Source: Escherichia phage vB_EcoM_YN3
Reading direction: 5' to 3' (one strand)
Sequence record: PV763136.1
DNA: 64,000 nt
Shown in pieces: positions 13,410 to 19,046 of this stretch. Under the pieces are notes generated by a model. That model was not told the DNA's origin. It searched no databases and saw only the letters and a list, made by a program, of their open reading frames with translations. Positions within the stretch are counted from its first letter, which is position 1. Each line of letters begins with the position of its first letter. Made by a program: the position numbers and the translations under genes.

Positions 13410-16400
13410 TTAACGAGAAAAGGTTGCGTAGGCTTCTAGACGATACTGCTGGTCACCAGGGAACATAACACCTATAGAGGCTGTCCCTAGAATCCTGCCT
13501 TCCTTTCCAGACTCCATTCTGAACCCTACCCATCCTGAACTCCTTGCAGCCTCGATGTTGTCGCTATACCCGAAAGTGGCAAGATCGTCAACACCAGCCC
13601 CAAACAGCAACTGAAGCTGACTTCTCGGAAGCCCTATAATTTCAGGAATATACGCACCAAAGTACACCATCTGCCCTACCTTAGGACCGCTGCCGTACTC
13701 CATCGGTTTGCTTGTAGAGAAAGTCTTCATACCAGAAGTACCTGCCGGATTAGGGTATGCCCCGTTTGTTGCTGTACCTATCCACATTCTCCACTGTGGT
13801 GCCATCTGTTTGACAGTAAAAGATGTTGAAGACGTTTTGCGCCCTGCATCATCAGTAACTACAAACGTTATAGTGACATTACCAGTAGCTTTAAATGTTA
13901 CCAGTCCTGTGGTGGCATCCACTGTTGCAATGTTGGTATTACTACTTTCCCAAGTCTTTCTAATCCCGGCTACGTTGGAAGGGGTAATAGAAGGTTCCTG
14001 CATCTGCAGTTTACCACCAACAATCCCTATGCCGTTGCCCGGATTATACAGCACACCAACCTCGTCTATAATGTTCCCTGCTTTGAGACTATACTTCCTT
14101 GAGAAGTTGTAGGTTCCGTTATAAGTGTGTGTCCCTGAGAAGGTGACATCTGCCTTCCCGTAAGAGATGCAAACCAAAGCATACTTCCTGTCAGGCAACG
14201 TTGCTCCAGTCTCCGGATGAGTTTTACCCACCTGAAACACACTCGGGTCAGTGGAGTCGTGGCTATCACTAACTGAGCTTGGACCACCCATCAGTTGTGA
14301 CAAGCAATTCCTTACCCATGTCCAGTTATTATCGCTGGAGAAGTCCACAGTCAAATCAAACACAACCCACTCATTCGGCTTCCACACAGGTGTTGTAATG
14401 GACTTGCCTACACCACCCCCTTGGAGTGTTGCTGACTGTTCAGTGATCAGGGCCGCATAGGCCAGAGTTCCTAAACTCAGAGTCTGGCTTGCTGTCCTCA
14501 CTACCTTAGAGTCCGCGTCTGTGAAGTTGTTGATGATCTGGAATGTGCCATAAGTGTTTTTACAGGTAATTCTGGCGTTCAGCGTGTCAATCTTCCTCAC
14601 ATCTGCCATAGCAGCGTTAGACACAGAAAAGTCAGAAGCTTTAGCTGAGTTTGCCGCAACAGCAGGATCAACGTTAAGAGTTGCGTTGAACTGACAAGCA
14701 GGAGTAACCAGCAGCTTGTTATCGCCTATTTGCTTCCATGCAACACTTTGAACAGGAAGATTCCATTTGATACCTGAGAAAACTTTAGCAACCCTTGGAC
14801 CCAAAGCTCCAGTCCTGTTGTCTTTACAGCACATGGACATGGTGATCGTTGACGGGGTAGCCTGACCGAACAGTTGTTGTGCTTTTGCAGAGGACATGGT
14901 GTAGAAATTGTCCCTAACAAACTCATCAGCGGCTAAAGATCCATCAGCCCTCCACCACTGAACCTGATACCCTGTCTTATCCCAGCCACCAACCTGCTTC
15001 AAGTCCTCCCAGGAGATTTCCAGATCCCCGGTGGTAGGATTGATTGCAGCAGTTCCTGGTGTTCCAGATGACCATATTGGAATATCGAACCACGCTGGTT
15101 TAACCGACTGCACTGCGCTGGGACCTATTGCGGCAGCAAGTTGCTGGCCCATCAATACGCGAGCATCTTTCACCAGACCCCACTCGATCATAGACCCAGA
15201 GTAACCTTCTTTCTTGTAGGCTGAGGATCCGTTCAAATGGATGAGTCGGCTTGTGCCAAAGTTATGTGCTCCACCACCGTTGTCGTCTGCAAAATTGGTT
15301 ATGATTCTGTCCCTGATATTTTTCCATGCCCTGCCTCCAATCTCGTAGTCATGGTCATAACATCTTTGCAGTGTTGTCCAGCAAATGATCGCCATCCTTC
15401 TACCATTGCTGAAGCCAAAGGCCTGATCGTTAAGCTCTCTCCACAAGTAGCAGTTGGTGGTCCACATGGCCCTATGAATGTTAAACCAGTTTATAGATTT
15501 GGCTGAGTTGTTCCACTGAGTCCCAGGTAATTCAGGCCATACTGCATTAACCAGCATGTCTTCTGTTCCTGCATCAACCAAGAACCCTCTCACCTTCTTA
15601 CCCATGCCTACCCTATCTTTTGCAATCCAACTGCCAAACAATCTCAGTTTTGGACCGTAGACAACATCTTCCGGATGCTCAAAAGAAATATATTTTAGGT
15701 ATATTGTAGGGTCACCATAGGTGCCATCACAAACAGCTTTGTGCATGTTCTCACCAAGGTCTAGACGAAGTCCTGTTACAACTCTAGACGTGTCGGTGAA
15801 TTTGTCTGTTAAATCAAACTCATACCACCACCAACCTGCACCCAACAATACTTTCTTACAACGCTGTGCATCTGTATCAGATATTCTCTTATCACCTGCA
15901 AAAGGTGAGTCAGCAAACTGATAGTGCAGAGCAACCTCAAAAGGATGTGTGGATGTCCCGTTTTCTGCAAGAACTTGTTTACCTATCAGGTCGCACTTAA
16001 TGATCATCACAACACGTTTGTATCCGTTTGTTACCGGAATTTGCATGGACATGGATGTCCCATCCATGTTTGATCTCAGTGCAGTCATGATGATATAAGG
16101 GTCAACGGCATTGCCCAAAGTCTCAGGACCGGGGATTATCTTATACTTCTTGACCTGCCCCATGATGTAGTCACTTGCGTAAGTTGCCTCATTCAAGCAA
16201 GATCCTCCACCAGGTAACTCACCAGGTCCCCAGAAAAATGCGCCGTAACAGTTGTAGAACCACTTGTTAGGATCGTATTTATTCTTGAAGGTCTGAACCT
16301 CGTTGGCCTGTTTTGTCAAGAAAACCTGCGTGTCTGTGAAGATTGCAGGGTTTACTCTCGCCTGTCTTGGAGGGTAACCTGTAGTTTGGTTAAACCACAA

Positions 16401-19046: not shown

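Follow-up and report, generated by a model that had tools for sequence, protein, structure and literature searches.

In T-even phages of the T2/T6 type, gp38 is a small protein of approximately 260 amino acids (aa) that determines the host from the fibre tip. In phage N4, the receptor binder is gp65, a ten-domain protein that is present as single chains, not as trimers, paired with gp64, and a part of the gp65 chains may reach outward into the layer of polysaccharide (PMC13434306). The rV5-like phages (Vequintavirus) are among the most common E. coli phage isolates and serve as components of therapy cocktails. Which of their many fibres is built by which gene is still unsettled (BASEL paper). 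One product of these phages, rV5 gp27, has been described as a conserved hypothetical protein of 1878 aa and 208 kDa with a Big_2 domain (PMC3606486 supplement). Here we examined its counterpart in a 64,000-nucleotide stretch of Escherichia phage vB_EcoM_YN3 (sequence record PV763136.1), which we call the window, and whose positions are used throughout. The counterpart is a giant open reading frame (ORF), referred to below as gp27:

13410..19046, minus strand: giant ORF of 1878 aa, ortholog of rV5 gp27, bas48_0041 and bas54_0041 (PHROG 15684)

We suggest that gp27 is a low-copy virion protein which serves as an accessory, host-dependent adhesin, built as a string of beads, docking on the tip of the fibre protein gp28 and binding glycans, and we assign this reading a probability of roughly 0.55. 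The adhesin is probably non-trimeric, and we infer its docking site, ligand and oligomeric state. The gene itself has already been annotated in more than 100 genomes, and the dispensability of an ortholog is contained in a preprint (bioRxiv 10.1101/2025.11.20.689424). In the literature that we searched, however, we found no description of an RCC1-like propeller in gp27, of the relation of its centre to N4 gp65, of the N-terminal peptide that it has in common with other proteins, or of a co-conserved fibre head. The analysis supplies a domain map of gp27, a solved distant relative (N4 gp65) and a docking model onto gp28, and it explains why gp27 is conserved in nature although many laboratory isolates carry a broken copy.

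The window is Vequintavirus DNA; its full-length identity to more than 100 genomes of this genus is 94-96%. The orthology of the giant ORF with rV5 gp27, bas48_0041 and bas54_0041 follows from synteny after gp28, and the Vequintavirus gp27 family (phrog_15684) matches it end to end (positions 1-1878 of 1878, 4498 bits). For bas54_0041 the orthology was checked, and this protein of 1875 aa occupies the same position with 92% aa identity to gp27 of the window. The reading frame runs on the minus strand from the ATG at 19046 through 1878 codons with no internal stop, and it is the terminal gene of a long block of tail and tail-fibre genes on that strand. The next largest ORF of the window has 1381 aa, so that the description given by an earlier sequence-only reading, namely the biggest ORF of the window at the end of its block, holds. 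Full-length gp27 is encoded in at least 107 of the 120 matching Vequintavirus records with 90-98% aa identity, the GC content of the gene is ordinary relative to the window, and its syntenic slot is occupied in several related genera. The ratio of non-synonymous to synonymous substitution rates (dN/dS) was 0.087 against CarlMeissner and 0.070 against MaxBurger, even at a dS of 0.7. The ratio was low in all 200-codon blocks except the C-terminal 280 aa or so, where dN rises, and the C-terminal 294 aa fall into two allele classes within the genus (approximately 80% versus more than 95% identity). These results indicate that gp27 is a constrained core gene of Vequintavirus, a real gene under purifying selection. 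The sequence-only reading had likened it to accessory host-range cargo, but this part of the proposal was not supported, because genus-wide conservation, the syntenic slot, ordinary GC and a dN/dS of about 0.08 speak against mobile cargo.

When 5.8 billion proteins were searched with gp27, only 15 clusters were returned, all of 1711-1976 aa and 40-96% identical, and a divergent metagenomic member sits in the same gene order. The distant homologs align throughout residues 1-1433, residues 1435-1585 are replaced, and the alignment continues over residues 1585-1860 at about 37% identity. The identity to these homologs is 70-80% in the first 450 residues and drops to 12-24% near aa 1450-1600, with 12-40% on the C-terminal side. 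Such a decrease from the N- to the C-terminus is typical of proteins that are anchored by their N-terminus and bind variable ligands distally, as fibre-attached receptor binders do. A profile of aa 441-1440 run with HMMER against 1.84 billion representative proteins gave no match outside the family, a word-index search with aa 1-460 returned near-identical fragments only, and the sequence and the family profile matched solved structures (PDB) only through Big_2. As a separate observation, approximately 15-20 GenBank records (MG0656xx) titled 'Campylobacter phage', with C. jejuni as the host, carry gp27 at 91-96% protein identity to that of E. coli Vequintavirus, and we consider this host label doubtful.

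The presence of gp27 in the virion and its host-dependent role are supported by published experiments on orthologs. In rV5 virions, mass spectrometry (MS) detected 3 peptides of gp27, which cover 3.1% of the protein (PMC3606486 supplement). For Bas54 (MaxBurger) on E. coli K-12, the HIDEN-SEQ transposon map showed that bas54_0041 was non-essential, with 281 of 336 TA sites disrupted, while the adjacent upstream bas54_0040, the gp28 counterpart, was essential with 1 of 123 TA sites disrupted (bioRxiv 10.1101/2025.11.20.689424). When a uropathogenic isolate was compared with K-12, the mean of the bas54_0041 insertions decreased from 30.9 to 5.8, a log2 fold change (log2FC) of -2.23 with an adjusted p below 1e-5, printed as 0.00000 (bioRxiv 10.1101/2025.11.20.689424 supplement). 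Since insertions are tolerated on K-12 and depleted on the uropathogenic isolate, the Bas54 ortholog is accessory and host-dependent; it is dispensable for the formation of infective particles, yet it helps on at least one natural host. The accessory host-range role proposed from the sequence is consequently supported for this ortholog, although the word 'cargo' attached to it is not. The same comparison shows that the clinical isolate permits insertions in bas54_0024-0027 (log2FC +3.7 to +6.5), while bas54_0028-0031 turn essential on it (log2FC -5 to -6.4), and different fibre sets thus exchange their roles from host to host.

Several deposited genomes annotate the gp27 gene as two pieces. 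We aligned five of them to the gene of the window, and each showed a different lesion, as follows (positions are those of the gp27 gene):

naswa: one nucleotide lost from a G run, nt 2284
Alma: one nucleotide lost, nt 624
ime: two nucleotides lost, nt 3155
phita32: codon 1439 changed from CAA to TAA
nomine: codon 82 changed from TGG to TAG

The last two lesions are base substitutions, for which homopolymer sequencing errors are an unlikely cause; K-12 MG1655 was the isolation host of three of these phages. The sequence-only reading had named frameshifts as a possible objection to the ORF. The frame is intact in the window, and the independent frameshift and nonsense alleles of the five relatives fit cost-free loss on laboratory hosts, not a false gene.

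The domain map of gp27, all on the minus strand, is as follows:

18990..19046, minus strand: N-terminal peptide, aa 1-19 (MLPIPLLKL...), with invariant residues and the M-x-P-I/F-P motif common to last-gene products of five lineages; proposed docking element
17700..18989, minus strand: predicted RCC1-like seven-bladed β-propeller, aa ~20-449 (weak Pfam match, homology to 4MG_038, Foldseek)
16533..17699, minus strand: three predicted immunoglobulin (Ig)-like β-sandwich domains, aa ~450-838, the third of which (aa 737-838) opens the gp65-like module (structure model of low to moderate confidence, Foldseek)
14736..16844, minus strand: putative N4-gp65-like module, aa 735-1437, with Ig/FN3-like, SASA-like α/β and FN3-like parts (hhalign)
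15672..16199, minus strand: predicted β-sandwich inserted in the SASA-like domain, aa 950-1125, lineage-variable (structure model)
14775..15050, minus strand: predicted FN3-like domain, aa 1333-1424 (weak Pfam fn3 match, structure model, alignment to the FN3-like repeats of gp65 and PHB05_146)
14031..14774, minus strand: most variable stretch with two predicted β-sandwiches, aa 1425-1672 (12-24% identity to distant homologs)
13779..14030, minus strand: Big_2 domain (bacterial Ig-like group 2), aa 1673-1756 (Pfam, structure model)
13413..13778, minus strand: predicted C-terminal β-sandwich tip, aa 1757-1878, with two allele classes and raised dN

The region of aa ~20-449 is predicted to be an RCC1-like seven-bladed β-propeller. 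By eye, seven blade repeats can be recognized at aa 45-70, 89-116, 153-187, 218-246, 272-307, 321-351 and 391-427, and in each of them a hydrophobic strand is followed by G-x-N/D-x-x-G. The Pfam scores of gp27 itself are below the cut-offs (WD40_RLD, E 1.7e-4 and 21.5 bits versus a cut-off of 150; RCC1_2, 15 bits versus 22), and 12 of the 16 family members show a weak sub-threshold RCC1-like match. The assignment is strengthened by two relatives, ukendt gp231 (890 aa) and 4MG_038 (567 aa), both of which carry an RCC1-like domain at aa ~40-330 followed by Big_2 domains. They pass the Pfam RCC1 cut-off of 21.7 with 23.9 and 36.9 bits, respectively; aa 1-449 of gp27 align to aa 1-399 of 4MG_038 (E 4e-14), and aa 1-197 are 40% identical to ukendt gp231. 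When the structure model of gp27, which is of low confidence here, was submitted to Foldseek, the RCC1-like domains of HERC1, HERC2, UVR8 and WBSCR16 were found with probabilities of 0.98-1.0. The resemblance to RCC1, the HERC RLDs, UVR8 and WBSCR16 concerns repeats and fold over approximately 150-165 residues at 15-18% identity and implies no common function, and no role of an RCC1-like propeller on a phage fibre was described in the literature searched.

The centre of gp27 was connected with N4 gp65 through an intermediate family of last-gene proteins from phi92-like phages. This family comprises PHB05 gp146 (939 aa; L012 5334-8153), which is without propeller and begins with two Big_2 domains, and five proteins of about 647 aa (P0021-P0025), which we aligned together. 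All six members show weak matches to SASA (sialate O-acetylesterase), the best with an E of 1.6e-5, and their profile matches the N4 gp65 structure with an E of 6.4e-36, over gp65 aa 431-588, 622-1059, 1082-1166 and 1203-1261, which makes them clear homologs of the central repeated domains of gp65. On the gp27 side, aa 1219-1419 align to aa 436-621 of PHB05 gp146 (44.7 bits, E 5e-8 for the pair), and hhalign of the gp27 family against the phi92-like family gave a probability of 88% and an E of 3e-6. When gp65 aa 600-1075 were added to the template, the alignment was collinear over gp27 aa 735-1437 with a probability of 93%, an E of 3.2e-7 and a score of 62.7, while the reversed template scored 17.9 (0.2%) and the other three gp27 regions approximately 14 (0.1%). 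The order of parts in the module follows that of the tail protein of phi92-like phages and that of gp65 aa ~622-1059. Based on these comparisons, aa 735-1437 appear to be a distant homolog of the SASA-like/FN3 module of gp65, reached via the phi92-like intermediate.

Within the module, the Ig/FN3-like part contains the motif N-x-Y/W-G-D at aa 744-754. Block I of the α/β part reads 'YIVCMGGTN' in gp27 (aa 850-858) and is aligned to 'VIVFAGQDN' of the phi92-like family and to 'ILFAGESQ' of the first copy in gp65. The block-III-like motif of gp27, 'LVDAGTEDML' (aa 1156-1165, with G-T-E-D retained at aa 1160-1163), is aligned to 'IIWGQGENDA' and 'IIWGQGDQDA'. We had considered 'WGPGE' (aa 939-943) as the esterase block III, and this candidate was rejected as hhalign places the block at aa 1156-1165. 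The position of the SASA/SGNH nucleophile Ser is occupied by the invariant T857 in gp27 (G-G-T-N, aa 855-858) and by Asp in the phi92-like family, and Ser is kept only in the first gp65 copy. Catalysis is doubtful because of this replacement; gp27 gave no SASA match in Pfam and contains neither the block-I Ser nor the G-x-S-x of SASA/SGNH esterases. This esterase-like module is probably no longer catalytic, or is catalytic in an unusual way, and serves binding. Between the two α/β halves, gp27 has an insertion of approximately 270 residues that includes a β-sandwich (aa 950-1123) and is the most lineage-variable part of the module; in the β-sandwich the identity to P0007, P0010 and P0015 falls to 14-28%, and it sits in the gap of the hhalign alignment.

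Compared with N4 gp65 (PDB 9lc0, 9yf4, 9yf5 and 9yft), gp27 is likewise large and has about ten globular domains. The two proteins differ in that gp27 is without NCTSP_N and TIM-barrel_NCTSP, for neither of which a match was found in gp27, and has instead the RCC1-like propeller and the insertion of ~270 aa. They also differ in that gp65 is needed for N4 infection whereas the gp27 ortholog is dispensable on K-12, and in that gp65, together with gp64, forms the sheath of a non-contractile tail and binds NfrA, whereas the phage of gp27 is contractile-tailed. In the window, a fibre protein of 690 aa (24239..26311, minus strand) carries Calx-beta, NCTSP_N and a full TIM-barrel_NCTSP, the domains that form the N-terminal half of gp65. 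The domain repertoire of gp65 thus appears to be split over two unrelated proteins; a relationship of the gp27 core to the TIM-barrel_NCTSP of this neighbour was rejected, as the two were unrelated in comparison.

The rest of gp27 is predicted to consist of β-sandwiches. AlphaFold2 (AF2) was run on aa 726-1878 and on aa 1-860 with alignments of 16-17 sequences, and the mean predicted local distance difference test (pLDDT) values were 55 and 47, respectively. The β-sandwich at aa 737-838 was modelled with confidence and those at aa 454-564 and 587-720 with less; the inserted β-sandwich reached a pLDDT of 65-86 and the FN3-like domain 62-78. In the most variable stretch, confident β-sandwiches were placed at aa 1451-1567 and 1591-1656, and another confident one at the C-terminal tip (aa 1793-1875). 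The Big_2 domain was modelled at a pLDDT of 77-93 and is the sole significant Pfam domain of gp27 (PF02368, aa 1683-1733, E 8e-8, 32.5 bits versus a cut-off of 22.8), which confirms the Ig-like domain noticed near the C-terminus by the sequence-only reading. Foldseek against the PDB was swamped by multi-Ig arrays (Nup210, cadherins, Sap S-layer and complement C5) and shows the bead string only. Coiled coils, triple β-helices or β-helices, collagen repeats and the S74 chaperone domain were not found by Pfam, PHROG, NCBIfam or AF2 secondary structure, there is no long helix, and no chaperone gene lies downstream of the giant ORF. The trimerisation elements by which trimeric fibres and tailspikes are recognized are accordingly not present in gp27, which is probably non-trimeric.

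The proposed docking partner of gp27 is encoded immediately upstream:

19095..20840, minus strand: gp28 (581 aa), baseplate-anchored fibre (match to phiTE 9cuy_g; essential in Bas54)
19098..19412, minus strand: C-terminal head of gp28, aa 477-581, proposed socket for gp27 (conserved in ukendt_232, PHB05_145, 4MG_039 and W70_107)

Residues 8-325 of gp28 match the modelled baseplate fibre of phiTE (PDB 9cuy chain g, E 6e-77); in phiTE, the sheath initiator contributes a helix to the helical bundle at the N-terminus of this fibre (phiTE cryo-electron microscopy (cryo-EM) paper). The body of this fibre varies, being phiTE-like in Vequintavirus, Seunavirus and W70 and composed of Tail_spike_N and collagen repeats in Phapecoctavirus and phi92-like phages. 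The last ~105 residues are conserved across genera; four lineages show 45-62% identity, and W70 shows 29%. In five lineages, the gene after the head-bearing fibre encodes a protein with an M-x-P-I/F-P N-terminus:

gp27: MLPIPLL, 1878 aa
ukendt_231 (Phapecoctavirus, PHROG 11922): MFPIPIF, 890 aa
4MG_038 (Seunavirus): MFPIPSL, 567 aa
PHB05_146 (Justusliebigvirus) and its family: MYPIPLF or MYPIPCF, 939 aa and ~647 aa, no propeller
W70_106: MIPFPII, 411 aa, little beyond the propeller by sequence, no Pfam match

These last-gene tail proteins are like gp27 in the slot after the head-bearing fibre, in the MxPIP-type N-terminus and in the Big_2 domains. The RCC1 propeller is found in ukendt, 4MG and probably W70, and the gp65-like module in the phi92-like version. 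At 411-939 aa, each has a subset of the modules, whereas gp27 joins the propeller, the gp65-like module and extra Ig-like domains in 1878 aa. The co-occurrence of the MxPIP peptide and the head in five lineages suggests, at the level of sequence, that the proteins dock at the fibre tip. Cryo-EM of Bas49 and Bas54 in the RBPseg study left unassigned density on the C-terminal head of fibre class TC8, to which a helical bundle, two β-helices and a head were ascribed and which has no database annotation. The description fits gp28, which has the phiTE-like N-terminal helical bundle and weak β-helix signals. The authors of that study raised the idea of a gp38-like tip adhesin for the TC8 fibre of Bas54, and by analogy gp27 would behave most like a separately encoded tip adhesin. 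Our working analogy is with the T2/T6-type gp38, which is also a separately encoded protein at the distal fibre end, although there is no sequence or fold relationship between gp38 and gp27. Neither the phiTE nor the phi92 cryo-EM paper assigns a gp27 homolog, and the fibre candidates that the phi92 paper, of 2026, considers do not include PHB05 gp146.

We suggest that the N-terminal MxPIP peptide, possibly together with the first propeller blades, docks on the C-terminal head of gp28, so that gp27 would form a flexible extension at the tip of this fibre and would not be needed for baseplate function, which is consistent with the essentiality of gp28 and the dispensability of gp27. The lectin-like surfaces of gp27, namely the propeller, the gp65-like module, the inserted β-sandwich and the C-terminal tip, may bind capsule, O-antigen or exopolysaccharide of some hosts and thereby increase adsorption. 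On rough K-12, which is without such glycans, gp27 would be superfluous, and because it is useless there it would be easily lost. More tentatively, rV5-like and phi92-like phages may share a plug-and-socket arrangement, in which the head of approximately 105 aa on an essential fibre accepts the MxPIP peptide of exchangeable adhesin cassettes, and in which gp27 is a monomeric giant tip adhesin that widens the host range and leaves the infection trigger untouched; we hold this generalization as possible rather than probable. The cassettes seen with MxPIP are the propeller alone, the propeller with Ig domains, the N4-gp65-like module, and all of these together in the 208-kDa gp27. If the generalization is true, socket and peptide would constitute a modular route to new binding specificities with baseplate triggering undisturbed, and a handle for host-range engineering.

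Other explanations need to be considered here. An active glycan-modifying virion enzyme, for instance an O-acetylesterase or a depolymerase, that strips or modifies capsule or O-antigen for access to the outer membrane, would agree with the kinship of the central module to a family with weak SASA matches and to the gp65 repeats, with the clusters of invariant Asp, Glu, His and Trp in the core (e.g. E1162-D1163 and N1189/H1191), and with the many glycanases carried by relatives in this phage group (BASEL paper). However, gp27 matches no catalytic Pfam or NCBIfam family, the nucleophile position is altered as described above, the search of 1.84 billion representatives yielded no relatives outside the family, and AF2 gave no model of the core. 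We regard this explanation as unlikely, though it is the rival to which we give most weight. The alternatives 'multidomain adhesin or enzyme' of the sequence-only reading are separated by this evidence, in that the propeller and the Ig/FN3 β-sandwiches are adhesin-like and the enzyme finds no catalytic family and a Thr for its Ser. The annotation of bas48_0041 and bas54_0041 in BASEL, 'lateral tail fiber protein with intimin domain', points instead to a conventional homotrimeric subunit of a lateral tail fibre, one of three fibre sets on phi92-/rV5-like virions and the primary receptor binder; the location in the fibre cluster, the detection in virion MS and the thin 70-nm fibres that are occasionally seen (rV5 paper) can be cited for it. 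The intimin label was rejected, since NF033627 scores 22.3 bits versus a cut-off of 1400 and only aa 1696-1734 within Big_2 align, which falls short of a full-length intimin match with β-barrel anchor, LysM and C-type lectin tip. The absence of coiled coil, triple β-helix, collagen, S74 chaperone and knob, together with that of a downstream chaperone gene, also counts against a trimer, as does the composition of β-propeller and Ig/FN3 beads, which resembles the monomeric N4 gp65. Moreover, K-12 can be infected without gp27 but not without gp28, gp34 or the short fibres, and only three fibres, none of them gp27, were fitted in the cryo-EM of Bas49 and Bas54. A homotrimeric lateral fibre seems to us somewhat less likely still than the enzyme.

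A decoration protein or environmental adhesin comparable with T4 Hoc, whose Ig-like domains would bind mucus or gut glycans from any site on the virion and increase encounters in the intestine, shares several properties with gp27. Like gp27, Hoc is a non-essential virion protein with Ig-like domains that are thought to bind glycans weakly; gp27 is rich in such domains, PHROG 215 ('structural protein with Ig domain') is matched by its last 290 aa, a faint profile match to a capsid decoration protein was found (E 0.23), and gp27 is not needed in vitro and has been lost several times from laboratory isolates; the phages come from gut and sewage. On the contrary, Hoc is a capsid protein of approximately 40 kDa, while gp27 has five times that size, contains the propeller and the α/β module, and has its gene in the fibre module. 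The insertion mutants were depleted on a specific isolate in vitro with no mucus present, the N-terminus of gp27 co-varies with the fibre head, and homologs are annotated as tail proteins (PHROG 11922). We give such a role a low probability, below that of the trimeric fibre. Finally, gp27 might be a decaying or non-structural ORF kept by chance, as the five relatives with disrupted copies and the non-essentiality on K-12 could be taken to indicate. This is practically refuted by the selection analysis and the proteomics, that is, by 5.6 kb kept open at the dN/dS of 0.07-0.09 in more than 100 genomes, by the rV5 virion peptides, and by the conditional fitness effect in Bas54.

Several observations weigh against the reading of gp27 as an accessory tip adhesin on gp28. 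The AF2 models are poor, with the propeller past aa ~200 and the α/β core at a pLDDT of 20-45, and because the core and most of the propeller were left unmodelled, we used only the secondary structure and the confident β-sandwiches. The gp27 profile did not match the single gp65 sequence significantly, though the best alignment was in the expected register, and the link to gp65 is for this reason transitive, via the phi92-like family. With a virion MS coverage of only 3.1%, we infer the tail position of gp27, and the C-terminal 290 aa match a family, PHROG 215, that is filed under 'head and packaging'. The identity of TC8 with gp28 is likewise our own tentative assignment. The depletion of bas54_0041 insertions on the clinical strain was only partial (approximately 5-fold) and its strain label is ambiguous: the sheet is titled CFE303 and the command line names sample 311, and the sheet titled CFE303 shows the MoxR and bas54_0140 depletion that the text of the paper assigns to CFE311. 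Lastly, Klebsiella phage KpS8 has the head and no downstream partner, by which strict co-occurrence of fibre head and gp27-like partner is rejected and which implies that the head is not purely a socket. Serratia phage Kashira has a fibre without the head and no partner gene. Taken together, these two phages suggest that the head is necessary, but not sufficient, for the partner.

The gene is framed by the following signals:

19051..19056, minus strand: Shine-Dalgarno sequence GGAGAA, read from the sequence
19066..19087, minus strand: hairpin with an interrupted U tract between gp28 and the giant ORF, putative weak terminator or attenuator
13373..13394, both strands: putative bidirectional intrinsic terminator, common to the giant ORF and a convergent 66-aa ORF

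The GGAG at 19056..19053 lies 6 nt 5' of the ATG. The upstream hairpin (19087..19066) has 9 pairs including 2 G-U and a folding energy of -16.1 kcal/mol (z -3.0), and it is followed by the interrupted U tract UUUUCUUAUCU; calling it a weak terminator ahead of the gene, as had been done from the sequence, is a fair description. This hairpin may reduce read-through and thereby the copy number of gp27. On the other side, small plus-strand genes 3' of the giant ORF converge on it and end at 13362. The site at 13373..13394 is a perfect palindrome, AAAGGGGCC-GTTT-GGCCCCTTT, placed between a run of A and a run of T. Its folding is equally good on the two strands, with energies of -18.7 and -19.6 kcal/mol and z values of -3.5 and -5.2. 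Since the convergent 66-aa ORF (13162..13362) ends there too, the terminator is bidirectional, in agreement with the earlier proposal. In the region, 8 terminator-like sites were found versus 7.5 expected from shuffles, which is no excess, and the case for the terminators rests for this reason on their position, their strength and the annotation of phage Alma, in which terminators were annotated independently at both corresponding sites.

Two minor observations concern the surroundings of the gene. A sigma-70-like site at 19120..19148 on the minus strand (TTGACA, 17 nt, TATCGT, with an upstream TG) lies within the 3' end of gp28, before the hairpin, and could be an internal promoter or a chance match. 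The 66-aa ORF at 13162..13362 on the plus strand, the counterpart of rV5 gp26, contains two CxxC pairs (DFCKDCSEE ... ICEGCGY), and its product could be a small zinc-ribbon protein.

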